Below are positions 14,985 through 60,572 of a stretch of 64,000 nt of DNA, in pieces. How positions within the stretch are numbered: position 1 is the first letter of the stretch; the number at the start of each line of letters is the position of its first letter. The stretch is from an uncultured virus (IMG/VR IMGVR_UViG_3300005077_000036) (lineage: Duplodnaviria; Heunggongvirae; Uroviricota; Caudoviricetes), in the IMG/VR virus record IMGVR_UViG_3300005077_000036; one strand, written 5' to 3'. The notes below the pieces were generated by a model, which saw nothing but the letters and a program-made list of their open reading frames with translations, was not told the DNA's origin and ran no database searches. A program made the translations under genes and the position numbers.

Positions 14985-15326
14985 ATGGATTGGACGGAGT
15001 ACGCCGAGGCGAATAGGGTCAAAGATGCCGGGGATAGAGAGGAAGTTTTGCTTGCGTCGCGTGACTACAGGACTGCTCCCGAGAGGCAGCAGAATGTTCG
15101 TTTAGCTGGCTGGATGCTCAGGCGCCCAGCTAGCAAGGCGCACTGGGCTCCCGTGGTGGCAGCGATGGCTAACCTTGCTGGTGCGCTTCGATGTGCCTGG
15201 GAACGAAACGGCTGGGCGATGCTGGCGATGCTCGTCGGCGCTTTCATTTGTCTCGTCGTCTGGCGGCTCCATCTTGTTTTCGTGAAGGGTCGTGTCATTG
15301 TTGACGTTGAGAAGGCACGAGCCTAG
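14985..15326 (+). CDS. Membrane protein
   Basis: AGGAGG RBS; hydrophobic C-terminal helices. Confidence 0.5.
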   Translation: MDWTEYAEANRVKDAGDREEVLLASRDYRTAPERQQNVRLAGWMLRRPASKAHWAPVVAAMANLAGALRCAWERNGWAMLAMLVGAFICLVVWRLHLVFVKGRVIVDVEKARA

Positions 15327-17417: not shown

Positions 17418-17476
17418 TCTCAACACGTACCGCGACATCCTTGGCTGGGGAAGGGTGCGCTGGCACAATCCGGGGC

Positions 17477-21275: not shown

Positions 21276-22139
21276 TCAGAACACGGGTTCGTCAACGAAC
21301 TCGCCCTCGACGATTTCCGGCTCATCGTCAAAGTTGTCATTTTGCTTCGATTGGGCGGGCTTCTGCGGTGGTGGTGGCGCAGGGGCCTCGTGCTCGATCG
21401 TGGCAGCGGATGGCGGCCTGTTCGGGGCGGAGGTGTTTGGGATGAGCAGATCCAGGCGGTTGTCTTCATAGGCCTCCTCGATGGACTCGGCTCGGATCAA
21501 TTCGGTGCTTCGTGGGGCGTTGGACAGGGCTCGGCGGATTGCGGTCTTCTTCCACATCGAGTCCGGGTGGGTGTTCCATGGGCTCTTCGGGTCTCTCGAC
21601 CGAGCGCTGCACCGCCTTGCAGCTTCGATGTCCTCCATCGTCACAACCGAAGGTTTCCACACCCCGCTGCTTGCGGTCCCGCCGACGAGCACCTTCGCGA
21701 ATGCGCACAGGGGTCGCCCTCGGGATTCCCGGAGGTTCGGCCGGTAGCGAACGTAATTGGACGTGCCCAGGTCGTACTCAAAATCGTCCTTCTCTCGTAC
21801 GACGTGCGCGTCGATGAGGTGGACGAGCGGATGCCTGTAGGCAAGCTCGATCAGTCCCTTGTACCCGATGATCAGCTGGCCGACCTTGCGGCCTGAGGCG
21901 TCCTTGAAGCCCACGATGTAGGCCTGCTCGTGGACCTTGCCGACCCGAAGGCCAAGCTCAGATGCGTGGACGAACCCCCAGAAAAGGCTGTTGGGCTCGA
22001 TTTGGCGCAGCTGCGGATCCCGATCCAATTCCACGTCCATGGTCGCTACCAACCGGTCGAAATCAACTCCGACCGGAAGCGCTGGGACGAGAAACGACTT
22101 CGATTTCTTGATGTGTACGATTGCGGCTGGTGTTGTCAT
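21276..22139 (-). CDS. recT: RecT-family recombinase
   Basis: AYIVGF, QLIIGYKGLIELAYR, VVREKDDFEYDLG, SPWNTHPDSMWKKTAIRRAL. Confidence 0.9.
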   Translation of the reverse strand: MTTPAAIVHIKKSKSFLVPALPVGVDFDRLVATMDVELDRDPQLRQIEPNSLFWGFVHASELGLRVGKVHEQAYIVGFKDASGRKVGQLIIGYKGLIELAYRHPLVHLIDAHVVREKDDFEYDLGTSNYVRYRPNLRESRGRPLCAFAKVLVGGTASSGVWKPSVVTMEDIEAARRCSARSRDPKSPWNTHPDSMWKKTAIRRALSNAPRSTELIRAESIEEAYEDNRLDLLIPNTSAPNRPPSAATIEHEAPAPPPPQKPAQSKQNDNFDDEPEIVEGEFVDEPVF

Positions 22140-23227
22140 GTTCTGCTCCCTGGTGTGCTCGCGAACTCCGCAAGCATCTCGACAAGCGTTTCGTCGATTG
22201 CGTCGTCTGTTTCCGGGCGGGTCCACACGCGAAGGTAGTGCGTTGGATCGCTTTCGAGGTAGTTGAATTCGCTCATGCGGATGCCAAGCTCCTCGCATAT
22301 CCTCTGCGCGCTGATTCGACCCGCTTTCTCTATCATCTTGGCGTTGCCCCAAGGTCCCGACATCTTCTGGTAGCGTCCGAGGGCGGCTAGCAGGTACTGG
22401 CCGGCGATCTCTCGCTCTTGCTTCGCAAGGCGCTGCAATCGGCTTGCAGCCTTGTACCGGTAGGCCCATTGTTGAGCTTCGTCCGGGGCGCTGAGCGAGC
22501 TTTCCATAACGACGGGTCCTAGGGTTGACCGCAACCATTTTTCGTACGCATCCGAGCCGTCCGGCGGCGGTGGTATCTGCGGCAGCACGTGCCGGTTCCA
22601 GAACTCCTCCGCGAGCCCGAAAAGCTGCTGCGCGACCTGCTCGTTGTAGCGCAGCTCGAACACCCGGAAGCGGCTCCCGTACAGGAGAGCTGCCACGTCG
22701 CATCTGCGATATCCGGTGACGAACATCTGCCACTGCGCCTGGACGTAAACGCTTGGGGGAACCCGGTCGCTGTCGTCGATGAGTGCTTCTCGAAGGTCCC
22801 AGTCGCGCCCCATGAATGACCCGACCAGCTTGCACTCCAGCAGATGTGACGCCTTGCCTGTGACGACCAGCTGTTTTTTCTCGCCTGGGTCTGGTTGCGC
22901 GTCCGAGAAGATGATGAACCGGTCGGGCGTTGCTCCGGCCCATTCGTAGGACGGGTGCTGGTAGGTCGTCTGGCTGAAGTACATCGACCAGACGCCGGCC
23001 GTCGGCTTGCACAGGTCCATGTAGAAGGACGCGAGGACAGCTTCCATCCGCTGCCCCATGTCCGCGGGAGAGCCCGCAGCGGGCGGTTCAGGCAAGGCCT
23101 GGGGGGGAGGCTCGACCTTGCTGAGGTACACCTGCAAAGCTGCCTTGCCTCCGGGCGTCGCGAGGGCCGCCACGTCGGTGGCGGTGAGCATGCGCTGTCG
23201 CTGCTGCAGCTGCTTGAGTGTGAGCAT
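22136..23227 (-). CDS. YqaJ-like viral exonuclease
   Basis: LTATDVAAL, GQRMEAV, GATPDRF, LLECK, YVQAQWQMFVTG; adjacent to recT. Confidence 0.85.
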   Translation of the reverse strand: MLTLKQLQQRQRMLTATDVAALATPGGKAALQVYLSKVEPPPQALPEPPAAGSPADMGQRMEAVLASFYMDLCKPTAGVWSMYFSQTTYQHPSYEWAGATPDRFIIFSDAQPDPGEKKQLVVTGKASHLLECKLVGSFMGRDWDLREALIDDSDRVPPSVYVQAQWQMFVTGYRRCDVAALLYGSRFRVFELRYNEQVAQQLFGLAEEFWNRHVLPQIPPPPDGSDAYEKWLRSTLGPVVMESSLSAPDEAQQWAYRYKAASRLQRLAKQEREIAGQYLLAALGRYQKMSGPWGNAKMIEKAGRISAQRICEELGIRMSEFNYLESDPTHYLRVWTRPETDDAIDETLVEMLAEFASTPGSRT

Positions 23228-23266
23228 GGGTTCAGGCGTACCACTACCGGCTGGTAAACGCAACCG

Positions 23267-24715: not shown

Positions 24716-25020
24716 CTCGGAGGGAGGCATGGCTCGTTTCGAGGGTGGAGGCGCAGACCGACAAGCTCAGGACGAGCGCGCCACTGCCTCGCTTCCCTGT
24801 GCCGCCAGCCGAGCGTAGCGCGAGCGCTCGCCCTGCGACCGAGATCGGCTTGGACTGGGGCGATTTCTCCTTCGAGCTTGCAGAGGAGCGATCGTCTCGC
24901 GAACGCATTCTGTCCATGAGGCCAATGCTCAGACAGCGCCTCCGGGTTGCGAAATCCGTTCGGCTCATGCCAGCGGGGGCTAGCGTCACTTTCGACTGGC
25001 AGCAGGAGGAAGAAGTATGA
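24706..25020 (+). CDS. Hypothetical protein
   Basis: Overlaps both neighbours; ends VTFDWQQEEEV. Confidence 0.5.
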   Translation: MELTRREAWLVSRVEAQTDKLRTSAPLPRFPVPPAERSASARPATEIGLDWGDFSFELAEERSSRERILSMRPMLRQRLRVAKSVRLMPAGASVTFDWQQEEEV

Positions 25021-25640
25021 AAACTTGGCTGGACTCGTTCATTGCGGTCGACGTCGAAACGACGGGGATGCTCGACGGGGCTCGAATAGTCGAGGTCGGC
25101 TTCGCGTGGTTTGAAGACAGGCGTCTCGCTCGCAAGTTCTCGACGTTGGTGAACCCCGGTGACATCGACTACACGGCTCCCGACGTGTCCGAAGCGATGA
25201 AACTCAATGGCATTCGGCCGGAAGAGCTTCAGGGCGCGCCCACTTTCGATCAGCTCCTTCGCAATTTCTTCCCCAAGTTTGGCCGAGAGCCCTGGGCTGG
25301 GCACAATCTCATGTTCGACCTGCGCATGTTCACCCAGGAAAAAACCAGGCTGGCTCGCCGGACGGGGCTCAATTGGGACGCCTTCGTTCCGAGGCCTCGA
25401 CTCAAGCTCGACACCATGCTGCTGGCCCACTGGCTCGACAAAACTCTCCCCCATTACAATCTCAAGGCTGTAGCCGAGGCGTATGGCGTGACCATGGATG
25501 GGCATCACCGCTCCATGCCGGACGCGAAGGCGTGTGGGGAAACCTTGATCGCAATGTCTGATCACCTTCCGCTCGACGACGAGGCGATCACACAAATACA
25601 CGAGCAGGCAAGGGAGCAGTGGAATGAACGATACAAGTAG
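25017..25640 (+). CDS. DEDDh 3'-5' exonuclease (DnaQ-like)
   Basis: AVDVETTG, GHNLMFD, LDT, HHRSMPDA. Confidence 0.9.
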   Translation: MKTWLDSFIAVDVETTGMLDGARIVEVGFAWFEDRRLARKFSTLVNPGDIDYTAPDVSEAMKLNGIRPEELQGAPTFDQLLRNFFPKFGREPWAGHNLMFDLRMFTQEKTRLARRTGLNWDAFVPRPRLKLDTMLLAHWLDKTLPHYNLKAVAEAYGVTMDGHHRSMPDAKACGETLIAMSDHLPLDDEAITQIHEQAREQWNERYK

Positions 25641-30504: not shown

Positions 30505-30860
30505 CGCGCTTTTCGAACAAACAGGGGGCATACCTGCGTGCCGTTCGGAACGAGACTGGAGTCACGCTGCAGCAGGTGGCGGACGCTCTTGGCGTGACCA
30601 AGCCGTACGTTTCGGACGTGGAGACGGGCAAACGCCAGTCGTTCCCCCCGAAGTATTGGGCGTCCCTGCTCAAGATCCTTCCTGAGCTGGATGTTCACGA
30701 TCTTCGCGATCTTGCGATAGCTGATGCGGTGGAGACTGCGAGGGGACGTGCTACCGAGCGGTTTGCGATTCCGCCCCAGCTCCTGATGCCATCGAAGCAA
30801 CGAATTCGATTTGTGGATATTCGATCCGGTGGAGCAGTCGATGAGAAAGAAGCTACCTAG
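30501..30860 (+). CDS. XRE-family HTH regulator
   Basis: [26 protein letters not shown]. Confidence 0.8.
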
Positions 30861-31293
30861 CAAGCGCTTCGGTTTCAATCAGGAGGCGGTCGTCGGGGGG
30901 CACAAGGTCTTTCTTCGTACGGGAGAGTACGAAGACGGGACTCTCGGCGAGATTTTTATCGACATGCACAAGGAAGGCGCGGCTTTCAGGTCGATGATGA
31001 ACTGCTTCGCTATGTCGATCTCGATAGGCCTGCAGTACGGCGTCCCTTTGGAAAAGTACGTGAACCTGTTCACCTTCACGCGCTTCGAGCCGTTCGGCGT
31101 AGTGACTGGGCATGACACGATTCGATACGCAACCAGCCTGGTCGACTACGTTTTCAGGGTGCTTGGAGTGTACTACCTTGGCCGAGTGGACCTGGCGGAG
31201 TTGCCGCAAGAACAGCAACCCGGGTTCGAGGTGACGAGCAACACTCCCATTGAAAAGAAGAGACGCGATGAAGGTGGTAGTTCTAGGCTGTGA
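30841..31293 (+). CDS. Stand-alone TSCPD-like domain (class II RNR C-terminal domain)
   Basis: [50 protein letters not shown]...FTRFEP matches the NrdJ C-terminal region. Confidence 0.85.
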
Positions 31294-32404
31294 CGGCTTT
31301 ATTGGATTCGCGCTGGTCCAGGCGCTTCTTGCGGCAGGGCACCACGTAGCAGGCGTGGACAATCTCAGCCGGCGGTGGGCAGTCCCAAGCGTGCTCCCGA
31401 TTGAGTCTTTCGACGAGCGGCTTCGGCGGCTCGAAGAGCGGTGGCCTGGCCAGGTGTTCAACTGGTCTATCGAGGAGGTTGTGAGGCTCGGTCGCGGCTC
31501 AACGTTTGACGTTGCAGACTGGCAGCCGGACGTTGTGATTCACCTTGGCGAGCTGCCAAGCGCTCCCGATTCGATGAGCAGCGTGGAGCGAGCCTGTGAG
31601 TACGTGCAGTACAACGTCGAGGCGACGATGAACCTGCTGTGGCACCTTCGGTCGTGTCCGAACGTGCACCTTATCAAACTTGGCACAATGGGTGAGTATG
31701 GTACGCCCGACCACATGATCTGGGAGGACGAGGAGGAGGTGTCGATCAACACTCACACCTGGACGCATGTTGGCAAAACCATGATGAGGATGCCTACGTG
31801 TCCGGGAAGCGTCTATCACGCCACCAAGGTGATGGATTCCGTTGCCGTGGACTTCGCGTGCCGAACGTGGGGGCTCCGGGCGACGGACGTGATGCAGGGT
31901 GTTGTGTACGGCATGGCGGACGTTCCCTTTCGCACGAGGCTTGACGTGGATGCGGTGTGGGGCACCGTCGTGCATCGTTTGTTTGCTCAAGCCGCGTGCC
32001 AGAAACCTCTGACCGTGTACGGTAAGGGGGAGCAGAAGCGAGGCTTTATCTACCAGGGCGACGTCCTGAAGTGCCTCCAGATCGTGATGAAGCACCCTCC
32101 TACCGCGGGCTCACGCAGGATCATCAACCAAATCGGGCACATCTACTCGATCAACGATATTGCAGAGCTGGCTATCATTGCGGCCAACGAAGCGGGCCAG
32201 CGCGTCGTGGTCGACCACGTACCGAACCCTCGGGCGGAGAAAGACGATCACTTGTATTCTGTGGAAGCGCACTGGCTGGCAGACAGGGGCTATCGTCCGA
32301 GGTCGCTAGAAAACACGGCTGAGGAGCTGTACAAGCTCTTTTCGGAGTGCCCCAGAGACGCACTTGAGGCTCGGCTGAGAACAAAATCGCCTGTGTGGCG
32401 ATGA
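31268..32404 (+). CDS. sqdB: UDP-sulfoquinovose synthase-like extended SDR
   Basis: [81 protein letters not shown]: SqdB/SQD1/Agl3 signatures. Confidence 0.85.
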
Positions 32405-32417
32405 AAGGGGGAGGTGA

Positions 32418-34691
32418 ATGTCACAGGTAATCTCGATTCGATGCGTGCCGAGGGAAGGCCACGGCGTGGCCGCGACGATGGCGTCGATGGTTCTCGCCGA
32501 CCCATCGTCGATCGGTCGCAAAATCCTGATAGCAAACGGCGCAGCGGACACTGGCTACCTTAGATTTTTGGAGGAAACGGCGCAGGGGGCCGAAAGCATT
32601 GTATGCGTGCACCCAACGCCGTCCGAGATCAGGCAGCTGGCTGCAATGGACAAGCTGCGTAGGAGTGCTTGGAACGCGGAAAGATGGCTTTCGTGCGCAA
32701 TCGATGGCACAAGTCCTGTAGTTCTGCTCGAAGACGACCTCATTTTCAGGCCTGGGTGGTTGCAACAACTTGAAACGGCGGCGGATTCAATCCGGCGGGA
32801 TATCGGAGACCGGTTTATCCTGTCCGGGTATCACAGGCTAGCCTTTCCGGGCGAAGCTTTGTACTACGAGCGGGAGAAAGGTGTGCCCTTCTGGGGCACC
32901 CTCTGCATGTACGTGCCGGTGGGGCTTCAGACGGACTTGCAGCATGTTTTTCGCTCGAACGCGAAGTCCTGGCAAGCTCCCATGGATACGCTGATAGATC
33001 GCTGGGCTTGTGCCAGCAGAGTGCCCATTTTCTACACCCACCCGTCTGTGGTGCAACACGCTGGCGTGGAAGCTTCCGCGGTGGGGCATTCGTCTCATAG
33101 CAAAGAAATCCGCCAGGCTCGTGGCTTTTCCGGCAACAGGCAAGGCGCTTCGGTGGTCATGACGTGTGCTGCTCGGGTCGAAGGGGCGCAGAAGATGGTT
33201 GCGCGCACCTGCGTAGGTTTGCAGCTGGGGCTCGACCAAGTTGGAGCCCCTGCGGAATGGACGCACATGGTGGCGGTGGACCGTGGCGGAAATCTGCCGG
33301 CGGAGTGGGGCCAAGTTGCGGCTGTGCCTGATAGTGACTGGCAACTTGTCGAGAGCCGAAGCGTTGCATACCAGCAAACTGTGAACATAGCGAATGCGCT
33401 TCGGGCCCTTCGCCAAGCAACCGGAACCGTCAACGTGCTGTGTGAGGACGACCTTGAGTTCGACGACGGCTGGGAGGCGAAGGCATTCGAGGTGTACGAC
33501 TGGCTTGAGCGGTCCCGCGTTGATTTCATCCTAAGCGTTTGCTGCATCATGCCGGCAAGCGCCTTCGACAAGACGTCCCGACGTGACGTGCTGAAGCTCC
33601 GCCCAGGTGTGCGCTTCTGGGGCCTTCAGTGTCTCATGATGCCCAGCTCCACTGTGAGGTTGATCTCCTCTCACGCTGATAAGCTGATTTCCGGCTGGAC
33701 TTTCAACTACGGGACAGACAACCACAAGAAAAACTCCATCGGCGACCGCGTTGTGTGGAGCGCCATACGAGCGCTTGACATCCCTGTGTACACGCCGAAC
33801 CCGAACCTGGTGCTCCATGTGGGCGATCAGAGCATTTGCTTTCCGGGTCGCGCTCCCGCCAGAGGCGAGCTGTATCGCCGCCCCATCCTGCCTGTGTGCT
33901 CGAAGCGTTCGCGTGCGGAGTCTCGGGCGCTGCTGTCCTCGGTGCTTATCGATGAACCTTCGCTGCCCGCGGCGAGGTACGTGGCATGGGATTGCTCGAA
34001 GGCGCCTTCGACGGTGCGCAAGCTCGTATGGACGAGAGCAAACCCGGTCAACCGGGTGCTTGGTAGCATTTTGAGCCTTCGCGGCGCCACTTGGGAAAGC
34101 GATGCGGAGGCTCTTTCTCTCGTGTTCGGCCCTCCCCCGCCCGAGATGGAAAACGGCTGGGAGCCTGTCAGGACTCAAGAGGTGCGTTACGGGGGCTGGG
34201 GTGCCTGTGCCCCCTTTTTGCTTGGACTGCTCCGTCTGGCCGGAGCGGGCGCCTCCATCCTGCACGACCACAGAATCCGGTGCGTCAAATCTGATTGGAA
34301 AAAGGTACTCGAAATTCTCAAGTCCGAAGTGCCCGGCTCAATTGACGAGCACCGATCTTACTCCGTTTTTGCTCCACCAAACCCTGGAGACATCTTGGTA
34401 AACGAAGGTGATGAGAGGTCGTGCGTTGCCATCCAAACGGTGCCCACGGCTGCGCCACCGAGGAAGTTCTACGTCATGGGATGCAGGATGGCGTGGAAGA
34501 CTCGCGATGGGGAGGGCGCTTGGTGCCCGGAGGTGTGGACGGACGACATCGGGTGGAATTGCAACAGCAAGCGTGCCTGGTGTATCATCGGAGGTGAAGC
34601 TTTTGCCGTGAAGGCAATCATCCGCACCGAACGGCTGCCTTTTGGTTCCGCGGGCTGGGAAATAAAGAAAGATGCCACACTCGGGCCCTGA
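32418..34691 (+). CDS. Multidomain glycosyltransferase (two GT-A-like domains plus an unknown C-terminal domain)
   Basis: LLEDDL...FWGTLC...PSVVQHAG and LCEDDL...FWGLQC...NLVLHVG. Confidence 0.7.
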   Translation: MSQVISIRCVPREGHGVAATMASMVLADPSSIGRKILIANGAADTGYLRFLEETAQGAESIVCVHPTPSEIRQLAAMDKLRRSAWNAERWLSCAIDGTSPVVLLEDDLIFRPGWLQQLETAADSIRRDIGDRFILSGYHRLAFPGEALYYEREKGVPFWGTLCMYVPVGLQTDLQHVFRSNAKSWQAPMDTLIDRWACASRVPIFYTHPSVVQHAGVEASAVGHSSHSKEIRQARGFSGNRQGASVVMTCAARVEGAQKMVARTCVGLQLGLDQVGAPAEWTHMVAVDRGGNLPAEWGQVAAVPDSDWQLVESRSVAYQQTVNIANALRALRQATGTVNVLCEDDLEFDDGWEAKAFEVYDWLERSRVDFILSVCCIMPASAFDKTSRRDVLKLRPGVRFWGLQCLMMPSSTVRLISSHADKLISGWTFNYGTDNHKKNSIGDRVVWSAIRALDIPVYTPNPNLVLHVGDQSICFPGRAPARGELYRRPILPVCSKRSRAESRALLSSVLIDEPSLPAARYVAWDCSKAPSTVRKLVWTRANPVNRVLGSILSLRGATWESDAEALSLVFGPPPPEMENGWEPVRTQEVRYGGWGACAPFLLGLLRLAGAGASILHDHRIRCVKSDWKKVLEILKSEVPGSIDEHRSYSVFAPPNPGDILVNEGDERSCVAIQTVPTAAPPRKFYVMGCRMAWKTRDGEGAWCPEVWTDDIGWNCNSKRAWCIIGGEAFAVKAIIRTERLPFGSAGWEIKKDATLGP

Positions 34692-35232
34692 ATTCGACGA
34701 ACTGTTCCTCCGGCTCGTGAAGCGAGCGAACCCGCTCACGTGCTTGGACGTGGGGATCGGCGACGGCAAGCGTGGAAAAATGATTCGCTCCGTCTGCCCC
34801 AACGCGCAGATCGTGGGCGTCGAGGCCGAGATGAGCTACGCGTCTCGTTTCGATTGGAGCATGTACACGCGTGTTCACTGCGGTACTTCCATCATCGACT
34901 TCTGTACTAAGCATTCGACTAGCTCCTTCGATCTCGTTGTTTTCGGGGACGTCCTAGAGCATCTCTGGCTGACCGACGCCTTATCCGTCCTCGAATTCTG
35001 GCAGGAGCGGTCGAAGGCGTGTGTGGCGATTTGGCCGATCGGCTATCACCAGGACGCGATTGACGGAGTAGCCTCTGAGATTCACCGATGCAGGATCCAC
35101 CTGTCTGACATGGTTGGCCGGGTGCCCGTGATCCGATACCACGAGCACGACCGTGGGAGAGGGCAGAGGAAGTGCTTTGCGGTCGTTCGAGGGCGGCTTG
35201 CTGACAAGCCTAACGATGTCGCGTACGGATAG
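34672..35232 (+). CDS. Class I SAM-dependent methyltransferase
   Basis: LDVGIGDG, IVGVE, FDLVVFGDVLEHL. Confidence 0.8.
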   Translation: MPHSGPEFDELFLRLVKRANPLTCLDVGIGDGKRGKMIRSVCPNAQIVGVEAEMSYASRFDWSMYTRVHCGTSIIDFCTKHSTSSFDLVVFGDVLEHLWLTDALSVLEFWQERSKACVAIWPIGYHQDAIDGVASEIHRCRIHLSDMVGRVPVIRYHEHDRGRGQRKCFAVVRGRLADKPNDVAYG

Positions 35233-43826: not shown

Positions 43827-45161
43827 GTGCGGGCGCTGGCGGAGCTTGCGCGCAAGCTCCGCGCGGAACACGTCCCGCGTTTGTCTCGTAGGCGCACGCG
43901 CGCACTGCTCCGTTTCGACGGAGCCACGCTGCGCGCGTGGATCGGCGACAAGCACATGACGGGCGACCTTGTGCGCCCGGACTGGGAAGGGTTGCGTGCG
44001 GCCGAACAGGCCGTACGCGAGATGGGACCCGTCCTGCAGGACGCGCGCGTGCGCGCGTTCGATTGGGCGACCCCGCGAGCCCGAGCGTACGTCTCGCTCC
44101 GAGAGGCGGGCGCCGACGTGGGTCGGCTGGTCGATTGGACGCACGGGGAGGAAGCGTGCGCACGCTGGGTTACCGAACGCGGGTACACCCGCTCGGTCGC
44201 GCCCTATTGGCGCGACCTGTCGGGCATGGCCGACGCTTTCAACGCGGTCGTGCGGGCGCGCTACTCGTTTAGGGATACGGATCTTGACTCGTACGAGAAC
44301 GCGGACTACGCGGTCGATGCCGCGAGCCGCGAGATCCGCGACCTTCGCGAGCGCTTCCAGGTTTGGGGCTCCGCTCCGGGCGTACGCCTGGACGGTGAGC
44401 ATGAGGTGGAGTCGGGCGAATGGCTCGTCGGCGAACGGGCGACCGTTCGCGTAACCTCCGTGCACAACCACGTCGTGGTTGTGCACGCGGCGCCAGGGGC
44501 GACCGTGCACGCGTCGGCGGAGTTGGGAATGGTCATCGTGCACGCGGCGCCAGGGGCGACCGTGCTTGGCCCTGACAGCGCTCGCGGCGTCGTGGTGATA
44601 AGCCGGGACGCGCCCGACACGGTGCACGGGCGCATGGCCGTTGCGTACGCCGTAGCCACTGAGTATGTGGTTGCGCCCATGCTTAAGGGTGCGCTCTGCC
44701 CGGCGTATCCCGATCTGGACGTTCGCAAAGCTGCCCAGATCGTACTGGGCAAATCGCCCGTCGAGCTTTCGGACGGGCAGCTTACGCGTGCGGAAGCGCA
44801 CGCATGGTGCGTCGATGGGGCGAAGCTGTTGCCGCAGCAATGGCTGATCCGCCATCTGCCGATGCCCGAGGGGGCGCCGTTCTGCCCGCGATCGGTCACG
44901 ATCGCTCGGTGGATGCTCGCGGTCCACAAGCGCGGCGCGTGGGGCCAGCTTACGCGCATCCGCACGATTCACGGCCCCGCTGGGGCGACCGTTCGGTCTG
45001 CGCTGATCGCGCAGATTGACGAGATCCAGGACGTGGATCTCGTAGAAGGCGATCGGACGCACGTGGACGTCGCGTTCCAACGCGCGGCCCAGCGCGTGAT
45101 AGACCGGCTCGAAGCGTGCAACCCGGAGTCGGAAAGGGTGCTCGCACCACGCACCACGTAG
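43827..45161 (+). CDS. PcfJ-related protein lacking the C-terminal PcfJ core
   Basis: IDEIQDVDLVEG..AFQRAAQRV matches LDEIQDVDLAEG..AFERAAERV at 15.7 kb; internal repeat VHAAPGATV x2. Confidence 0.6.
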   Translation: MRALAELARKLRAEHVPRLSRRRTRALLRFDGATLRAWIGDKHMTGDLVRPDWEGLRAAEQAVREMGPVLQDARVRAFDWATPRARAYVSLREAGADVGRLVDWTHGEEACARWVTERGYTRSVAPYWRDLSGMADAFNAVVRARYSFRDTDLDSYENADYAVDAASREIRDLRERFQVWGSAPGVRLDGEHEVESGEWLVGERATVRVTSVHNHVVVVHAAPGATVHASAELGMVIVHAAPGATVLGPDSARGVVVISRDAPDTVHGRMAVAYAVATEYVVAPMLKGALCPAYPDLDVRKAAQIVLGKSPVELSDGQLTRAEAHAWCVDGAKLLPQQWLIRHLPMPEGAPFCPRSVTIARWMLAVHKRGAWGQLTRIRTIHGPAGATVRSALIAQIDEIQDVDLVEGDRTHVDVAFQRAAQRVIDRLEACNPESERVLAPRTT

Positions 45162-45227: not shown

Positions 45228-45256
45228 TTGACTTTGTTTTTTCCGCGTGGTAAAGG
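45228..45256 (+). promoter_or_regulatory. Sigma70-like promoter of the AAA operon
   Basis: TTGACT-17 nt-TAAAGG with extended TG; A-rich upstream. Confidence 0.45.
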
Positions 45257-45320
45257 CAAGGCTCCCTTGCAGCGGTGCAAGGCGGAACGGAACGACGGAA
45301 CGAATGAAGGAAGGAACACA

Positions 45321-46865
45321 ATGGCCACGACAACAACCACCCTTGTTCAACGATTGGCGCACGCACGTGCGCGAGGCGTACCGCTCATCGCTGTGCGTAC
45401 GCCGGACATGCCCGCCAGCGTGCGGACGATCGCAACCGGTGTGAAGGAAGCACCGGTCGTCGCGTGGGACAGCGTACGGGGGTACTACTCCCCGTTCCTG
45501 TCCAACGACAAAAGCGACCGCGCAAAGGCGAGCGCGGACGCTCTCGCCCGCATGATGCAGGACTTGGATCCTGCGATGACCACGGACGCGACCAGTGCGC
45601 TCGAACTCGCGACCGAGGCGCCGGCCGGGACGTGGGTTGTCATGCAGTCCGCACACCGGTTCACGGACGGCGCGCAGGATGGGAAAGCCACGCAGGCGAT
45701 CCTGAACCTGCGCGACGGCTATCAGTCGACCGGGCGCACGCTGGTCCTGCTCGGACCGGCGTTCACGTTCGCGCCCGAGATTGGTCAGGACGTGTACGTC
45801 ATGGAGCAGCCGTACCCGACCGAAAGCGAGCGCAAGGCGCGCGTCCTCGAACTCGTTGACAAGGCCGTTCCCGGAAAGGTGAACGACCGAGCGGTCTCAC
45901 AGGCGGTCGCGTACACCCGTGGACTTGCGGACTTTGTGGTCACGCAGAGCGTTGCGCTCGCTCTCGGCCCGAAAGGGCTTGACCTGGACGTGCTGCGCGA
46001 AGTCTGGCGCGAAGCGATCGACGCGACCCCTGGCCTTCGCGTACAGCCGGACGGTCGCCTCGAAGACATCGCGGGGCTGGCGAACCTGAAGGCGTTCGCC
46101 CAGCGTGTCACAGGCGGAACCGGTCGCCCGGACGTGATCGTCTGGGTGGACGAGATCGAGAAGGCGCTCGCGGGTGGGTACGGGTCGGGCGCGGACTCGT
46201 CGGGCGCTTCCCAGGCGATCCTCGGCGCCATGCTGCGCGAGATGGAAGGCGCCAAGGATGAGGGCATGATCTTGCTCGGCCCGCCTGGTACGGGCAAGAG
46301 CATGAGCGCACAGGCGTTCGGGGCGACCGCTGGCGTTCCCACGGTCGCGTTCGTCCCGGAAGCATGCAAAGGATCGCTCGTCGGGCAAACGGAGCAGAAC
46401 GTTGCCCGTGCGATGCAGGTCAAACGCTCGATCGGCGGACGGGCGTACTGGGTTGCGACGTGCAACCGGATTGACACCCTGCCGCCCGAGCTTTTGCGCC
46501 GGTTCACGGACGGCGTCTGGTACGTGGATCTCCCGGACGCGTCCGAGCTTGACGCGTTGTGGAGCCTGTACCTCGCCAAGTACGGGCTGAAGGCGGACGA
46601 CCGACCGGCCCAGTGTGACGGGTGGACGGGCGCGGACATCCGCAACGTCACGCGCCGTGCCGCCCGCGACGGGGTGAGCGTGATCGAAGTCGCGAAGCAC
46701 CACGTACCGAGCGCACGCGCTTCGCGATCAATCATCGAACGGCAGCGCAAGGCTGCCGAAGGTACGTACGTATCCGCGAGCTATCCGGGCGCGTACAGGA
46801 TGCCCGCAACCGGGCCCGGTATCGCAGGCGACGCCGGGCGCACGTTCGACATGGGAGGCGAGTAA
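45321..46865 (+). CDS. Ycf46-like AAA+ ATPase with permuted Walker B/Walker A order
   Basis: DIAGLANLK, VWVDEIEK, GPPGTGKS, SLVGQTE, VATCN, LPPELLRR, YVDLP, GWTGADI. Confidence 0.85.
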   Translation: MATTTTTLVQRLAHARARGVPLIAVRTPDMPASVRTIATGVKEAPVVAWDSVRGYYSPFLSNDKSDRAKASADALARMMQDLDPAMTTDATSALELATEAPAGTWVVMQSAHRFTDGAQDGKATQAILNLRDGYQSTGRTLVLLGPAFTFAPEIGQDVYVMEQPYPTESERKARVLELVDKAVPGKVNDRAVSQAVAYTRGLADFVVTQSVALALGPKGLDLDVLREVWREAIDATPGLRVQPDGRLEDIAGLANLKAFAQRVTGGTGRPDVIVWVDEIEKALAGGYGSGADSSGASQAILGAMLREMEGAKDEGMILLGPPGTGKSMSAQAFGATAGVPTVAFVPEACKGSLVGQTEQNVARAMQVKRSIGGRAYWVATCNRIDTLPPELLRRFTDGVWYVDLPDASELDALWSLYLAKYGLKADDRPAQCDGWTGADIRNVTRRAARDGVSVIEVAKHHVPSARASRSIIERQRKAAEGTYVSASYPGAYRMPATGPGIAGDAGRTFDMGGE

Positions 46866-46866
46866 A

Positions 46867-47211
46867 ATGCCTTGCTGGACAATCAGCACGTTCACGGTCG
46901 ACCTCGACAAGATCGATCCTGCGAACCTTCGCGGGTCGAACGGGTTCGAGGGGTTGACCGTACAACAGACCCGCAACGGGCTGTACGTCAGCGACGCGTC
47001 AGGCGCGTACTGCGTGATTCAGGACGGCCAAACCGGCGTCCAGGTGATCGCGCAGAACGAGACGGACGCGAACACGCTTGCCGCGAAGCTGCGGCGGGCA
47101 CACGCGACCGCTGTGGTCGAGAAGGCCGCGAAGCGGTTCGGTATGAAGGTGCAGAAGAGCACGTTCAACGCGGGTACGCGAGTGCGTACGCTCAAGATTT
47201 CGGGGGGGTGA
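46867..47211 (+). CDS. DUF1257-like protein
   Basis: Follows the Ycf46-like ATPase; LRRAHATAVVEKAAKRFGMKV...LKI resembles the DUF1257/Ycf35 C-terminus. Confidence 0.55.
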   Translation: MPCWTISTFTVDLDKIDPANLRGSNGFEGLTVQQTRNGLYVSDASGAYCVIQDGQTGVQVIAQNETDANTLAAKLRRAHATAVVEKAAKRFGMKVQKSTFNAGTRVRTLKISGG

Positions 47212-47214
47212 GCC

Positions 47215-47424
47215 ATGGCGAACGGATGGGAGATCACGATCCTTGAGAACGGGGACATCCGCGTCACGTCGGAAGCGTGGACGGGCCCCAAACACATGAC
47301 CGCCGAAAAGTTCCTGCAATTCATCGCGCAGGAAACGAAGGGCGAACACACACGCGTTCGGCGGACGGACGCGAAGCATCACCATCACGAGCACGAGCAC
47401 GACCACGAGCACGAGCACAAATAG
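47215..47424 (+). CDS. DUF2997-like protein with His-rich tail
   Basis: ITILENGDIRVTSEAWTGPKH; tail HHHHEHEHDHEHEHK. Confidence 0.55.
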   Translation: MANGWEITILENGDIRVTSEAWTGPKHMTAEKFLQFIAQETKGEHTRVRRTDAKHHHHEHEHDHEHEHK

Positions 47425-47456
47425 GAGCACGTACGACCATGAACGAAGGAACGAAC

Positions 47457-48605
47457 ATGAACGCAACGCAAACCCAAGATCCATTCGCAAACTGCGTGGT
47501 ATTCACGCTCTCACAGTCCGCGTGGCGAGTCACCCGTAAGGTGTCCGGCGCGGACGTCGAGGTGTACGCGGTCGGCGAAGTCACGGGCACCGACGACGGC
47601 TCGACCAAGGTCGATCCCAAGCTTGCCACCGTGACAAAAAAGCTCCTGGACAAGTGCCCGGAGTACGCCCGTATCGGCAAGCTGGACGGAGCCATCCGGC
47701 GCGACCTGCGCGAACTCTGCGTCCCGTCCGGGATCATCCGGGGGGGGAGCTACCTGTTCTCGTACGCGTCCGTGCCGACGGTCGAGAAGCTGGTTGAGAC
47801 GTACAAGGCCGAGCGCGAAGAGGCGGTCGCCGCGTTCGTCGCTGTTTACCCCGACCTAGTGCGCGAGATCGCACGCAAGGCGAGGGAGAATCAGGGGCTT
47901 GCGGGCCTGTTCCGCGCGAGCGACTACCCGGCTCCCGGCGCGATCGCGGAGAAATTCACGGTCGAGACGGGGTACGAGGTGTTCGGGCAGGCGCCCGAAG
48001 CACTGGCACGCATTTCGGCGGACCTGTTCGCCCGCGAGCAAGACCGCATTCGCGCCAAGATCCAGTCGTCCGTGTCCGAGGTGCAGAACGCGATGCGTGC
48101 GGGCCTTCTAGGTCTCGTGGACAAGCTCCACGAGCGCTTGCAGCCGGGGGAGGATGGCGCACGCAAGGTGTTCCGCAACTCGGCCGTGTCGAACGTGACC
48201 GATTGGCTGGCCCTGTTCGACCAGCGCAACGTGACCAACGACGCCGCACTCGCGGACGTCGTGGCCAAGGCGCGCAAGGTCATGGAAGGGCTCGACCCGG
48301 ACACCTTGCGCAAGGATGAGAACTACCGCGCAACTGTGAGCAAGCGGCTTGCGGAGGTGTCCGAAACGCTCGGCGGCATGGTCGAGAAGGCGGCCGTGCG
48401 CACGTTCGACTGGTCGGAGGAATTGGACGCGGACGAGAACGCGGAGGGCTCGAACGCGAACGTCGAAGCGACCGACCAGGGCGCTGAGGCGATGAGCCAG
48501 GGCCCGCAGCCGTCCGCGTTCGATGACGAGCCCGACTTCGGACCCCCGGACGAGCCCGACTTCGAGCCGCCCGAGGACGCTGACTTCGTCCAGGCGTTTG
48601 CGTAG
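47457..48605 (+). CDS. DUF3150-like protein
   Basis: FTLSQSAWRVTRK, TKKLL, FVAVYP, FRASDYP, VFRNSAVSN, RNVTND, PDTLRKD; acidic tail. Confidence 0.6.
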   Translation: MNATQTQDPFANCVVFTLSQSAWRVTRKVSGADVEVYAVGEVTGTDDGSTKVDPKLATVTKKLLDKCPEYARIGKLDGAIRRDLRELCVPSGIIRGGSYLFSYASVPTVEKLVETYKAEREEAVAAFVAVYPDLVREIARKARENQGLAGLFRASDYPAPGAIAEKFTVETGYEVFGQAPEALARISADLFAREQDRIRAKIQSSVSEVQNAMRAGLLGLVDKLHERLQPGEDGARKVFRNSAVSNVTDWLALFDQRNVTNDAALADVVAKARKVMEGLDPDTLRKDENYRATVSKRLAEVSETLGGMVEKAAVRTFDWSEELDADENAEGSNANVEATDQGAEAMSQGPQPSAFDDEPDFGPPDEPDFEPPEDADFVQAFA

Positions 48606-52440: not shown

Positions 52441-53247
52441 ATGAACACGAAGGCAAACGGCAGGGAAAAACTACCATCATTCTACGCGGACCCGTTCGAG
52501 CTTGTGATCGTCGGCGTCGACACGCAGGACGGGCGAGAGCACCCACTATGGGACGCTCGCTCATTCGTTGCCCCGCCCGAGGAATTCATCGCCGGGATCA
52601 TCCGGCGGGGCGTACGCAAGCCCGTACTCGTCAAAAAACGCGACGACGGACGGCACATGATCGTGGACGGGCGCAAACGGGTACTGGGCGCCCGCCTCGC
52701 GATCAAACGCAGCGCGGAGATGGGAGCGAAGCTAGACATTCGCATACCCTGCCTGATCGTGCTCGGAAGCGACGTCGACCTGGAAACGGACGTGATCCTG
52801 CTCAACCAGCACCGCGTTGACGATGGCCCAGGCGAGCTTGCGGACAAGCTTCTGCAGTACCTCGATCACGGGCACACCATGCACGAGGCGCAAATATACT
52901 TCATGCTTAGCAAGCAAAAGCTGCTCGCTCTGCTCGCGCTGGCGCAGGCGCCCAAGGAGATTCGCAAAGCGTTCGACGAGGGGCGTATCTCGTTCGCGAC
53001 GGCTGTCCGTACTGCCAAACAGCAAGGCACGAACGAGGCGAAGCTCAAGAGCGCACTTGACACGAAGAAGCGGGGTCGTCCACGCGGACCTAGCCGAGCA
53101 AAGGTCGAGCGAGTGCTCGAAGCTGCGAACGAGGCGAAGGAGCCACCGCACCCGGAATTCTTGCGTGCGCTCAACTGGGTGCTCGGCCGCATCGACATCG
53201 ACGCAGCCGGGGTCGCGGACCTGGCAGGGAAGGCAGGCGCGTCATGA
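52441..53247 (+). CDS. ParB/Srx N-terminal domain protein
   Basis: GVRKPVLV, IVDGRKRV, LNQHR, GRISFATA. Confidence 0.75.
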   Translation: MNTKANGREKLPSFYADPFELVIVGVDTQDGREHPLWDARSFVAPPEEFIAGIIRRGVRKPVLVKKRDDGRHMIVDGRKRVLGARLAIKRSAEMGAKLDIRIPCLIVLGSDVDLETDVILLNQHRVDDGPGELADKLLQYLDHGHTMHEAQIYFMLSKQKLLALLALAQAPKEIRKAFDEGRISFATAVRTAKQQGTNEAKLKSALDTKKRGRPRGPSRAKVERVLEAANEAKEPPHPEFLRALNWVLGRIDIDAAGVADLAGKAGAS

Positions 53248-56229: not shown

Positions 56230-56520
56230 ATGAGCACGAAAACACCGCCCGAGGAAACGTTCGAGCAGAAGGCTGAACGCACCATCACCGCAGCCCTTCT
56301 ACTCGTACGCCTCGAAGAACTCATGATCGCTACGGACCGGGCCGAGGAAGCTGGGGAGTGCGTACACACGCAGCGATGGGTGGCTGCACACCTGGTGCTG
56401 GCGATCGAATCGCTCGGAGGCAAGGTGCCCGAAGCAACGCGCACGGCCCTTGCAGAATGCGGAATGATGCAAGGCGCAGAGCAGTGGCAGCGCGCGCTCA
56501 TACGGAGGGCACACTCATGA
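56230..56520 (+). CDS. Hypothetical protein
   Basis: AGGAG RBS. Confidence 0.5.
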   Translation: MSTKTPPEETFEQKAERTITAALLLVRLEELMIATDRAEEAGECVHTQRWVAAHLVLAIESLGGKVPEATRTALAECGMMQGAEQWQRALIRRAHS

Positions 56521-57332
56521 ATACCGAGCTTACACGCCGGGCGACGGTCCGCGAACTCGTCGCCGCCTTCCAGACAGCCGAAGCGCAGGTCCGCTCATCG
56601 TTCGCGGCGCTCGTGCAGGCGGAGAAAGACCTGAACATCGCCTTCGGCGTCACCGGCATCCACCGAATCGATATCTCGGCGTCCGACCACCACTGGCGCA
56701 GCCGATTCGATGACGCGGACGCCGCAGTTGCCCGCATGGCTCGTGACGCGTGGAAGCTGATTGTTGACCGGCTAGAGCTGCATCGGGCCATGTCGATCAC
56801 GAGGTATGAGGCGCTGGCTCGGCAAATCCGCGATGGCAAGGATCTGCCGCCCATCACCGAGGAGGCGGTCGTAGCATTCGTGGCACAGTCCGCCGCCGAC
56901 CTGCCCACCATGTTCGAGGAGGCGATCCGCGAGGTGCACGACTGGCTACGTCCTCGCGGGAGCGCGTACAAGACGAACAGCGAATACGAGATCCCGCAGA
57001 AAGTCGTTCTCAGCTACGTGGTGGACCCCGTAGACAAGAGATGGGCGCCTGGACCCTTCCGTGTTTGCTACAGCACGGCACAACGCCTCATCGCCCTTGA
57101 GAACGTGTTCAACGGACTCGACGGCCGCGGACAGATCGCAAAGGACCACTACTCGCAACTACACCGTGCTATCGAGGCGTGCCCGCGTGATGTCGGTCAT
57201 GGAGAGACCGACTTGTTCAAATTCCGCGTGTTTGGGAACGGCAACGGACACCTGACGTTCAAGCGCAAGGACCTCCTGGCACGACTGAACCAAGTCGCTG
57301 GCGGCAAGCGCCTGCGTTCGGAGGCGGCGTGA
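56517..57332 (+). CDS. DUF4942-like protein
   Basis: LPPITEE, YKTNSEY, LIALENVFNGLDG, ETDLFKFRVFGNGNGHLTFKRKDL...LN. Confidence 0.75.
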   Translation: MNTELTRRATVRELVAAFQTAEAQVRSSFAALVQAEKDLNIAFGVTGIHRIDISASDHHWRSRFDDADAAVARMARDAWKLIVDRLELHRAMSITRYEALARQIRDGKDLPPITEEAVVAFVAQSAADLPTMFEEAIREVHDWLRPRGSAYKTNSEYEIPQKVVLSYVVDPVDKRWAPGPFRVCYSTAQRLIALENVFNGLDGRGQIAKDHYSQLHRAIEACPRDVGHGETDLFKFRVFGNGNGHLTFKRKDLLARLNQVAGGKRLRSEAA

Positions 57333-58576: not shown

Positions 58577-58890
58577 CTAACCATCGAATAAAACAAATCC
58601 GAGAGTCGCTCGGCCTGAAGCCCTCAACGTGGGCAGGCATCCTGGGCGTGCACGTTGTAACCGTGTACCGGTGGGAGCAAGAGCAAGACGCCTCTCCAAT
58701 TCAAGGGATAAACGCTCACATCCTCGCTGTGCTTGACACCATGGACGACGCTCGACTGCCAGCGCTCGGGAAGGCTCTCGAAATAGCGTACCTGACAGGC
58801 GGCCCAATGCTCGCAATGCACATTTTGCTCCGCGAGCACTTCAGGCACTTGAAAGGCACGGAAGCGTGGCCGAAAGGAGAGGGCGCTTGA
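58573..58890 (+). CDS. XRE HTH protein
   Basis: IKQIRESLGLKPSTWAGILGVHVVTVYRWE. Confidence 0.75.
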   Translation: MTNHRIKQIRESLGLKPSTWAGILGVHVVTVYRWEQEQDASPIQGINAHILAVLDTMDDARLPALGKALEIAYLTGGPMLAMHILLREHFRHLKGTEAWPKGEGA

Positions 58891-58892
58891 CC

Positions 58893-60572
58893 ATGGAGAT
58901 CCCTGCGCCTCCAAACCTCGCCTATCGCAATTTCCAGAAAGAAGGCATCGAGTTCGCACTCCGAGTGCTGCAGAACAACCGAGCATGCCTACTCGCCGAC
59001 GACCAGGGCGTCGGCAAAACCATCGAGGGCCTTGGTCTTGTGAACGCGCTGGCGGCCCAAGGCAAATGCACCCGCACGGTTGTCGTCACACCCGCACGGG
59101 TGGTGCGAAGCTGGGAAGCCGAGGCGTGCAAGTGGCTCGTGCAGCCCACAACCATCGAAGTCCCCTCGTCTGCTGACGACTGTTTCCCGCAGGGACCCAG
59201 GTTCACGATCGTCAACGTGGAGAAGCTCGTGGGCTCCCGTGCAAAAGGACTGCGAGAGCAGCTGATCAAGGAACCGATCGATCTACTCATCGTTGACGAA
59301 ATTCATCGGTACGCAAACAGCAAGAAGTCCTACTTCGCCTCGGTGTTTAGCTCGAAGAAGCAGGACGTGCGCGGCCTGTGTGCTGTTTCCTCCAACGTGC
59401 TCGCCCTATCGGGAACGCCAGCACCGAACGGCCCTCGCGACATGGCGTCATGGGCGGCGTACCTCTGGCCGCGAATTTTCGAATCCGAGTTCAAGTTCAA
59501 GGTTCGGTACTGCGACGGCAGACGGGTAACCATCCCGACGCGCGGAGATCCCGAGCGGAAGATTTGGATGTTCACAGGCCGATCGCACATGGACGAGCTG
59601 CGAGAAAAACTGCGGCCCGTGATGCTTAGACGAAGGAAGGATCAGGTGCTTACCGAACTTCCCGAGAAGCAGCGCCAGCTTGTGGAGATTGATCTGGACG
59701 CGCCGCTGCTGAACAAAGTCGCGTGGAAGAGCGACAACGATCTGGTGCGCGACCTGAGCGCGTTCAAAGACAACCTGTCCTCCGCGCCCGAGGAGCTTCT
59801 CAAAAAGACGTCCGCTGGCATGACCAAGGAGCTTCGCGAGGTCGGTCTTGCGAAAGCCAAAGCGGTCGCTGAGGCGATCGACGACGCCGCATCCGACCCG
59901 TGGAGGAAAATCATCGTCTTCACATGGCACCACGCGGTCACGGACGAAATCGCCCGCGAGACAAATGCACGATGCGTCGTGCTCGACGGTCGAACAAGCG
60001 CCTCGGAGGCCAAGAAAATCATCGACCGATTTCAGGCAGTGGAGAGCAAAGATCAGGTGCTTGTGGCCTCGCTCAAGGCCGCAGGCGTGGGAATCACGCT
60101 CACAGCCGCAAGCCTCGTGCTCATCGCCCAGCCAAGCTGGACGCCAGCGGACATGCTCCAAGCCGAGGACCGTGCATACCGTATGGGGCAGAAAAATAAG
60201 GTGCTGATTCGCTACTTCGTAGGCAGAAAGAGCGTCGAATGCGCCGTTGTTCGGGCGGCAATCGAGAAGCTCGAAGCAGGCGAGGTCATCGTCGGCGACA
60301 AGGACACTCGCCTGGGGTACGCCCCGTTTCAAAGAAAACTCGCTGCCGATCTGGCGAGGACCCTTCGCCTATCAGTGGACACGCGGCGGTCGTACGGGCT
60401 GAACGTTCAGATGACGTCGTTCGAGAGGATTCTCATCGCGTCGTGCGCCCAAGCTGAGTTTCTCACACAGAAGCAAACAGCCGTCATCTGGCGGCTTATC
60501 GAGCGAAACGCGGGGTCGGTTCCGCCTGATCTGGTGCAAGCACTCAGGCTAACGGACGGATCGAAGGGGTAG
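58893..60572 (+). CDS. SNF2/HARP-like SF2 helicase
   Basis: LLADDQGVGKT, IVDEIH, LSGTP, LRRRKDQVL, GVGITLT, QAEDRAYRMGQ. Confidence 0.9.
   Translation: MEIPAPPNLAYRNFQKEGIEFALRVLQNNRACLLADDQGVGKTIEGLGLVNALAAQGKCTRTVVVTPARVVRSWEAEACKWLVQPTTIEVPSSADDCFPQGPRFTIVNVEKLVGSRAKGLREQLIKEPIDLLIVDEIHRYANSKKSYFASVFSSKKQDVRGLCAVSSNVLALSGTPAPNGPRDMASWAAYLWPRIFESEFKFKVRYCDGRRVTIPTRGDPERKIWMFTGRSHMDELREKLRPVMLRRRKDQVLTELPEKQRQLVEIDLDAPLLNKVAWKSDNDLVRDLSAFKDNLSSAPEELLKKTSAGMTKELREVGLAKAKAVAEAIDDAASDPWRKIIVFTWHHAVTDEIARETNARCVVLDGRTSASEAKKIIDRFQAVESKDQVLVASLKAAGVGITLTAASLVLIAQPSWTPADMLQAEDRAYRMGQKNKVLIRYFVGRKSVECAVVRAAIEKLEAGEVIVGDKDTRLGYAPFQRKLAADLARTLRLSVDTRRSYGLNVQMTSFERILIASCAQAEFLTQKQTAVIWRLIERNAGSVPPDLVQALRLTDGSKG

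Follow-up and report, generated by a model that had tools for sequence, protein, structure and literature searches.

Few enzyme folds have been studied as much or are conserved as strongly as the core of AAA+ ATPases, which is taught with a single, fixed chain order; in classical AAA domains this order runs strand 1, helix 1, strand 2, helix 2, strand 3, helix 3, strand 4. Phage and satellite ATPases with this normal order are encoded by Streptococcus satellite phage Javan368 (QBX09687, hereafter P0122), Pseudomonas phage SM1 (gp026), Mycobacterium phage Corndog (gp96), Rhodobacter phage RcDurkin (gp60) and Rhizobium phage L338C (gp050), where they lie in the early region of tailed-phage genomes. 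Here we describe a 514 aa AAA ATPase (hereafter P0001) encoded in a 64,000 nt stretch of DNA from an uncultured tailed virus (Caudoviricetes; IMG/VR record IMGVR_UViG_3300005077_000036), referred to throughout as the window. P0001 resembles the normal-order phage ATPases in length (~500-570 aa), in its N-terminal domain, in its DIxGL, Walker A and Walker B motifs, in the xSxVGxSE pore loop, in the ATxN and LPxELLRR motifs and in its lid, but these relatives carry the Walker A block first and the Walker B block second, whereas in P0001 the two are reversed. We consider it very probable that P0001 is a two-domain, classical-clade AAA ATPase whose active C-terminal domain bears a natural, family-wide non-circular permutation.

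The reading frame of the P0001 gene is uninterrupted throughout. It is enclosed in a longer open reading frame (ORF) with a TTG start (45228-46865), and the ATG at 45321 is its likely start, since a purine-rich, Shine-Dalgarno-like stretch (gaaggaagga) lies directly 5' of it and homologue alignments begin at residues 1-15 of the protein. A previous reading made from the letters alone (the sequence-only reading) had placed a Walker B strand at about nucleotide 46130, ahead of a Walker A motif at 46278, positions that agree with residues 271 and 320 of the product. The translated ORF, together with the crossed matches presented below, confirms this order: the motif VIVWVDEIEK (Walker B) precedes GPPGTGKS (Walker A), and no hhhhDE motif is present in the ATPase sequence C-terminal to Walker A (Table 1). 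Instead of the classical order, the P0001 chain runs strand 3, helix 3, strand 1, helix 1, strand 2, helix 2, strand 4. The Pfam AAA model (PF00004) matches the protein with 50.2 bits (cut-off 21.2), split in two stretches, the better of which covers profile positions 1-52 of 131.

Comparison with normal-order proteins yielded matches that cross, and chance is far from sufficient to explain the order. In a phmmer search against PDB chains, query residues 313-362 aligned with residues 521-570 of Cdc48 (D2 domain), residues 271-312 with 581-622 and residues 376-461 with 628-719. A profile built from 121 normal-order relatives matched the whole native ATPase with an E-value of 4.1e-22, profile positions 331-370 falling on residues 272-312, positions 271-334 on 314-377 and positions 373-453 on 375-448. 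The crossing pattern was alike in five of five normal-order phage relatives, the SM1, Corndog, RcDurkin and L338C proteins each giving four crossed pieces against a profile of the permuted family. The curated NCBIfam models CDC48, FtsH and PAN match P0122 in one stretch (E about 1e-33) and P0001 only in fragments (E 2.8e-7 or weaker), and a search with P0122 itself returned only proteins 82-99% identical to it. Exchanging blocks 271-312 and 313-374 of P0001 in silico raised the score of the normal-order profile from 66.4 bits in three crossed pieces to 96.6 bits in a single piece, and the reverse exchange in P0122 raised that of the permuted-family profile from 184.2 bits in four crossed pieces to 219.9 bits in one. 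Because the matches cross and the reciprocal exchange restores collinearity, P0001 differs from the normal order, as judged from sequence, by exactly one exchange of neighbouring blocks; the three breakpoints lie before residue 271, between residues 312 and 313, and between 374 and 375.

The sequence-only reading had proposed a non-circular permutation in which two internal beta-alpha blocks changed places in frame, and both the crossed matches that it had anticipated and the swap test support this proposal. The description of the blocks needs refinement, in that one of the two moved blocks is a single beta-alpha unit (271-312) and the other comprises two such units (313-374). The comparison with Ycf46 proteins on which the proposal had been framed holds for the crossing, found with Cdc48, with the normal-order profile and with the phage relatives, but not for the name: the Ycf46 label stems from automatic cluster names in the Atlas (clusters named 'ycf46', TM 0.73-0.77 to P0001) and from a JGI name ('SpoVK/Ycf46/Vps4 family') on a relative of P0122, and not from a curated model.

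The relationship to normal-order proteins extends beyond the exchanged blocks. The permuted-family alignment matched P0122 in hhalign with a probability of 99.8% (E 2.5e-30) over 420 columns; since the match starts at residue 18, an N-terminal domain of ~240 aa is common to permuted and normal-order proteins, and N-domain profile positions 11-251 were also matched in L338C, Corndog and RcDurkin. Within this collinear alignment the Walker B block of the family stands opposite the alpha0 linker of the normal protein, and the normal Walker B block faces a gap.

The permuted order is conserved well beyond the window. A word-indexed protein search recovered 443 proteins at E <= 1e-3 among 7998 scored candidates, and the best 120 of these (36-54% identity, 455-558 aa) all have the permuted order (120/120). 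An exhaustive profile search returned 37786 proteins at E <= 1e-3, with 11342 at E <= 1e-10 and 4075 clusters at E <= 1e-30. When the best 150 of the 37786 matches (representatives of 50%-identity clusters, all below 1e-166) were scored by an order test, in which a single match to the family profile had to span both junctions, 147 passed, and in the other three, also collinear, the match is interrupted solely by an intein in Walker A, so that the order holds in 150/150. The same test was passed by 75/76 ATPase ORFs from genome loci, the remaining one being a 202 aa fragment, and gp103 of the cultured Tunturiibacter phage Tunturi_3, whose genome is complete, also has the permuted order.

The origin of the window in an uncultured record might invite the view that the order arose artificially in the assembly or gene calling of this contig, through a chimeric join or a local rearrangement. 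The same order and breakpoints are nevertheless kept across many independent assemblies in all of these sets, which excludes misassembly, a danger that the sequence-only reading had itself raised, and supplies the independent homologues that it had called for; the complete Tunturi_3 genome shares the order, and the P0001 frame is open from end to end. We therefore regard an artefact as practically out of the question.

A genome scan identified 375 relatives, and the best 80 loci were used for all locus counts given here. In metagenome-assembled genomes (MAGs), these loci belong to Acidobacteriota (Bryobacteraceae, Terriglobia), Nitrospirales, Planctomycetota, Armatimonadota, Myxococcota or 'Deltaproteobacteria', Dormibacterota and Chloroflexota. 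Single MAGs among them often hold several copies of the permuted ATPase, with three or four copies on separate contigs in one MAG (L007, L009, L026 and L033) and in another (L021, L025 and L028), which suggests multiple related prophages or elements in one genome. Atlas neighbours of the ATPase are 85-96% viral. The permuted family is very large, with thousands of sequence clusters, and occurs for the most part in the tailed phages and prophages of bacteria from soil and freshwater.

Inteins are present in five of the best 150 representatives (P0187, P0234, P0264, P0131 and P0248), which reach lengths of 810-896 aa. The intein interrupts Walker A in three of them (GPPG / intein / xxKS) and sensor 1 in the other two (AT / intein / CN), and Pfam recognizes Intein_splicing, Hom_end_hint, LAGLIDADG_3 or HNH_3 domains in these five members.

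The catalytic residues were assessed in a family alignment of 330 sequences. The sequence-only reading had described the catalytic motifs as intact despite the exchange, and the alignment bears this out, K326 of Walker A, E278 of Walker B, N382 of sensor 1 and R394 being invariant (330/330 each). Also invariant is G323 of Walker A (330/330), a motif that otherwise varies within the family (GPPGCAKS and similar). In Walker B, D277 is found in 324/330 sequences and replaced by Glu in the other six, and E280 and K281 are conserved too. R393 is kept in 326/330 and, with R394, is presumed to provide the arginine fingers on the basis of alignment to Cdc48 and general knowledge. Pore loop 1 (K-G-S-L-V-G) retains V354 in 321/330 and G355 in 329/330, the DIAGL region retains G252 in 329/330 and P270 in 300/330, and the lid retains G437 in 326/330 and A438 in 312/330. 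P0001 has the features of a classical AAA protein in its PF00004 score, a GxxGxGK[ST] Walker A, an hhhhDE Walker B with its Glu, a polar sensor-1 residue closing strand 4 and the arginines of the second region of homology, the chain order being the departure. From these residues we infer that P0001 is an active ATPase.

A contrary interpretation would hold that the DEIEK block is no working Walker B, that the domain is degenerate or regulatory, and that the resemblance of residues 271-312 to Walker B units is a remnant. The match of 271-312 by itself to Cdc48 is indeed weak (7.5 bits), and the Pfam AAA model matches only piecewise. On the other hand, the Walker B acids and the neighbouring E280 and K281 are kept across the family with no alternative hhhhDE after Walker A, the block exchange adds about 30-36 bits in both directions, and positions 274 and 276 co-vary with the sensor-1 strand and position 280 with residue 322 of the P-loop. 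Inteins favour functionally critical sites, and those in Walker A and sensor 1 of five members point the same way, although this argument is only suggestive and rests on that general preference. Taken together, this interpretation appears very improbable.

An AlphaFold2 (AF2) model of P0001, computed on a 66-sequence alignment, is confident (mean pLDDT 93.1, pTM 0.88), as expected under the sequence-only reading, which had counted a misfolded model against itself. Its elements follow in the order helix 254-265, strand 272-276, helix 296-310, strand 314-319, helix 326-337, strand 341-344, helix 356-371, strand 375-381, helix 389-394, strand 399-401 and lid helices up to 479, with pLDDT values of 94-97 over residues 261-280 and 95-97 over 301-320, that is, across the junctions. 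The best Foldseek matches are the tandem AAA proteins Rix7, p97 and Cdc48 (E about 1e-12). VIA-align places the whole model (residues 5-483) on p97 D1-D2 (209-763) with Z 17.9, and the AAA domain (239-492) on p97 D2 (468-764) with Z 16.0 and an rmsd of 2.6 Å over 198 residues. The alternation of strands and helices in the N-terminal domain, together with the whole-length fit to p97 D1-D2, suggests that this domain is a degenerate AAA-like one.

Co-variation was analyzed by mean-field direct coupling analysis (DCA) of residues 236-425 (190 columns, effective number of sequences 225). The 150 strongest of 17020 pairs contain seven strand-strand pairs, six of them between strands that adjoin each other in the normal 5-1-4-3-2 sheet, namely strands 3-4 (three pairs, e.g. 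274-377 and 276-377), 1-5 (318-402), 1-4 (313-377) and 2-3 (275-343). No couplings were found among these top 150 pairs for strands 3-1, 3-5, 1-2, 2-4 or 2-5. Further couplings link helix 3 with helix 2, helix 0 with helix 1, residue 275 with helix 1 (residue 330), and the DIAGL loop with the P-loop and helix 1 (253-325 and 250-328), besides those of residues 274, 276 and 280 mentioned above. These helix and loop couplings fit normal AAA packing, and superposition and co-variation together predict that the strands are arranged as in the normal 5-1-4-3-2 sheet.

The proposed rearrangement would involve only whole beta-alpha units. Because whole strand-loop-helix units moved, the P-loop, the Walker B acids, the pore loops and sensor 1 would each stay in their own unit, and the rewiring would be limited to three helix-to-strand connectors at the far edge of the sheet (alpha0 to strand 3, alpha3 to strand 1 and alpha2 to strand 4), each shifting to a strand one or two places away. 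Since every crossover keeps its direction, the chain should be able to fold into the usual 5-1-4-3-2 sheet. Like its normal-order relatives, P0001 would probably form a ring and act on a protein or nucleoprotein substrate as a remodelling enzyme. Because AAA proteins in general have the normal order, the permuted order is best taken as the derived state; the breakpoints are identical in every member, which suggests a single origin. The simplest route would be a tandem duplication of both blocks followed by loss of the outer copies.

Several observations weigh against the reading of P0001 as a permuted but normally folded AAA ATPase. Sequential aligners leave ~55 of the ~254 domain residues unaligned, an outcome that is expected where such an aligner meets a 42-residue moved block. 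One of the seven coupled strand pairs joins strands 4 and 5 (376-397), which are not neighbours in the normal sheet. The AF2 model and the DCA take their signal from one alignment and so do not count as independent lines of evidence; that alignment is itself thin, and the strand order was deduced from superposition and co-variation, not read off model coordinates. No duplicated-block intermediate was found among the best 150 of the 37786 matches, the five long members being explained by inteins and not by duplications, and the duplication route is accordingly a conjecture of ours. No DUF3150 gene, the characteristic neighbour of the permuted family described below, lies within 7 kb of the SM1, Corndog, RcDurkin or L338C ATPases, the four that were checked. 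Finally, the Atlas names Pfam 38.1 PF30482 for the aligned part of two related clusters, and the family may already be curated.

The deduced strand order and the 376-397 pair, together with the blindness of sequential aligners to the place of a moved block, would also suit a truly different fold with a new strand order and an active site built differently. Such a fold is hard to reconcile with the superposition of 198 domain residues on p97 D2, with six of the seven coupled pairs being normal neighbours and none joining strands 3 and 1, with alpha3-alpha2 and alpha0-alpha1 co-variation as in normal packing, and with a model that is confident across both junctions. We judge it quite improbable, and retain the reading of a normally folded AAA domain with two exchanged blocks.

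Beyond the ATPase itself, a conserved feature of the related loci is a DUF3150-like partner gene. A homologue of the partner is present in 67/80 loci, downstream and on the same strand in 66 of them, and in 10 of the 13 loci without it the sequence stops no more than 1.6 kb past the ATPase gene. The partner encoded in the window scores below the gathering threshold of Pfam DUF3150 (PF11348; E 0.079, 12.7 bits against 24.9), and the homologue at locus L077 reaches 24.4 bits (E 2.1e-5); a structural match of the partner to DUF3150 clusters in the Atlas (TM 0.70) reaches the bar for naming. Its predicted fold (pLDDT 78) returned nothing from the PDB at E <= 0.001 with Foldseek and only generic helical bundles with Z below 10 in a wide VIA search. 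A complex prediction of the ATPase with the partner scored 0.04 against a mark of 0.32, which is evidence neither way. In Tunturi_3, a DUF1257 gene (gp102) directly follows the ATPase gene, and the DUF3150 homologue lies six genes further downstream. The product of Tunturi_3 gp96 (L001 9627-10664), labelled 'HNH endonuclease', matches the profile of the DUF3150-like partner over residues 44-343 (E 2.1e-88), and from this similarity the label may be wrong.

Other genes recur around the permuted ATPase. Radical-SAM / Fer4_12 proteins are encoded in 34/80 loci, DUF1257 in 33/80 (at a median of 9 bp past the ATPase stop codon), SSB in 27/80, a helicase in 23/80, Gp157 in 21/80, a CAAX protease and an AEP primase in 16/80 each, a Gp3-like protein in 12/80 and PRTRC_E in 11/80. 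The radical-SAM / 4Fe-4S (Fer4_12) gene lies at a median of 259 bp past the ATPase stop codon and upstream in some loci (e.g. L033 7337-7942); no Fer4_12 gene was identified near the ATPase in the window. Most DUF1257 genes of the loci are followed by a 63 aa DUF2997-like ORF, and DUF2997 and DUF1257 (Ycf35) form a known conserved gene pair in cyanobacteria (PMC4284462, PMC13060386).

In the window, two small ORFs occupy the corresponding positions between the ATPase and the partner (Table 1). Identification of the first as DUF1257 (Ycf35) is not supported, with no Pfam match and an hhalign probability of 0.2% against the DUF1257 neighbours of the loci. The second has no match to DUF2997, and it lacks the GxGC motif of the related-locus ORFs; the equivalent small ORFs of two related loci match DUF2997 only at E 0.06-0.09. 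Immediately upstream of the ATPase gene, a 444 aa ORF (43827-45161, +) has no family match and contains the repeat VHAAPGATV twice.

From the gene neighbourhood, our best guess is that the ATPase serves as a ring-forming remodelling motor in an early DNA-metabolism module of tailed phages, paired with DUF3150. A bolder proposal, which we hold to be rather doubtful, is that the swap is no neutral accident and marks a distinct phage machine that arose by one ancient duplication-deletion. The P-loop strand of this motor would come straight after pore loop 2 and helix 3, which would alter nucleotide-to-pore signalling, and the motor would have become tied to DUF3150, and often to DUF1257 and DUF2997, in some step of early phage DNA metabolism or of host takeover. 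If true, no AAA+ core whose chain topology is altered in nature would precede this one, and the family would be a natural experiment on the role of connectivity in mechanochemistry.

The remaining gene content of the window (Table 1) looks like that of a phage or other mobile element, and no capsid, portal or terminase genes were recognized within it. A possible sugar or DNA-modification cluster belonging to the element is a run of genes at 30811-35232 (+), which encodes a TSCPD-domain protein, an NAD-dependent epimerase/dehydratase, a 757 aa product that weakly matches a glucosyltransferase, and a methyltransferase-like ORF.

Table 1. Positions of the P0001 gene, its domains and motifs, and other genes recognized in the window.
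Feature	Nucleotides	Strand	Residues	Remark
PcfJ-like protein	15323-15982	-
GH25 lysozyme	16668-17468	-
SSB	20565-21257	-
YqaJ/RecE-like exonuclease	22136-23263	-
RNase T-type exonuclease	25017-25640
Permuted AAA ATPase gene (P0001)	45321-46865	+	514 aa	stop codon within range
N-terminal domain	45321-46049	+	1-243	degenerate AAA-like (predicted), resembles p97 D1, no P-loop
DIAGL loop, helix alpha0 and linker	46050-46130	+	244-270	now runs into the Walker B strand; AF2 helix 254-265
DIAGLANLK		+	from 249	motif
Moved block B	46131-46256	+	271-312	Walker B strand, pore-loop-2 region (DSSG), helix alpha3
VIVWVDEIEK	from 46134	+	from 272	Walker B
DSSG...LREMEG		+	ends at 310	motif
Moved block C	46257-46442	+	313-374	Walker A strand, P-loop, helix 1, strand 2, pore loop 1 (KGSLVG), helix 2
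GPPGTGKS	from 46278	+	320-327	Walker A
KGSLVGQTE		+	from 350	SLVGQTE from 352
Sensor-1 strand, LPPELLRRF and strand 5	46443-46535	+	375-405	AF2 strands 375-381, 399-401
WVATCN		+	from 377	sensor 1; VATCN from 378
LPPELLRRF		+	from 387	presumed arginine fingers
VDLP		+	from 402	motif
Helical lid with GWTGADI	46536-46796	+	406-492	AF2 helices 407-479; weak AAA_lid_3 match 431-448
GWTGADI		+	from 435	in lid
Small ORF	46867-47211	+	114 aa	2 nt past the ATPase stop codon; DUF1257 position of 33/80 loci, by positional analogy only
Small ORF	47215-47424	+	69 aa	His-rich tail (HHHHEHEHDHEHEHK); DUF2997-like position of related loci
DUF3150-like partner	47439-48605	+	388 aa from this ATG	frame open from 47277; conserved downstream gene
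ParB-like protein	52441-53247	+		downstream of the ATPase, same strand
DUF4942	56358-57332	+		downstream of the ATPase, same strand
SNF2-family helicase	58866-60572	+		downstream of the ATPase, same strand

An anti-phage role of the IetA / IteA type was considered and rejected: the IetA model NF042959 gives 37.4 bits where its cut-off is 510, the PADLOC IetA match covers only residues 307-364, in keeping with generic P-loop similarity, and the defence-system models returned nothing beyond such partial IetA P-loop matches. In the literature, we found no publication on a permuted AAA or P-loop order, and nothing on this protein under Ycf46/phage, DUF3150, DUF1257/DUF2997 or Tunturi_3. Permuted proteins of this kind are under-described, since standard profiles match them only in fragments.

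The P0001 family presents a very conserved enzyme core that appears to have been rewired in nature with all of its catalytic residues kept, and that still looks functional. For protein evolution, it offers a clean non-circular permutation inside an enzyme core with normal-order sisters at hand for comparison, and for AAA+ mechanism, a natural test of whether the connectivity of the Walker B/pore-loop-2 unit to the P-loop/pore-loop-1 unit matters.

Among characterized systems, the D2 domain of p97/Cdc48 is alike in fold and in catalytic motifs, but p97 keeps the normal chain order, its D1 is active and its N-domain serves adaptors, and its sequence identity to P0001 is 16-24%. The circularly permuted GTPases of the YlqF/YjeQ type are likewise P-loop NTPases in which the nucleotide-binding motifs are reordered and the fold is kept. 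Their permutations are circular and create new termini, whereas in P0001 the termini are unchanged and two internal AAA blocks are exchanged. For a very conserved phage fold, the HK97 capsid fold, a natural non-circular permutation has been reported from Bordetella phage BPP-1 (PMC3863775); it concerns a capsid protein of another fold and function and not an enzyme core. Non-circular permutation is already known for other folds, and what appears to be new in P0001 is the exchange of two blocks within the AAA core.

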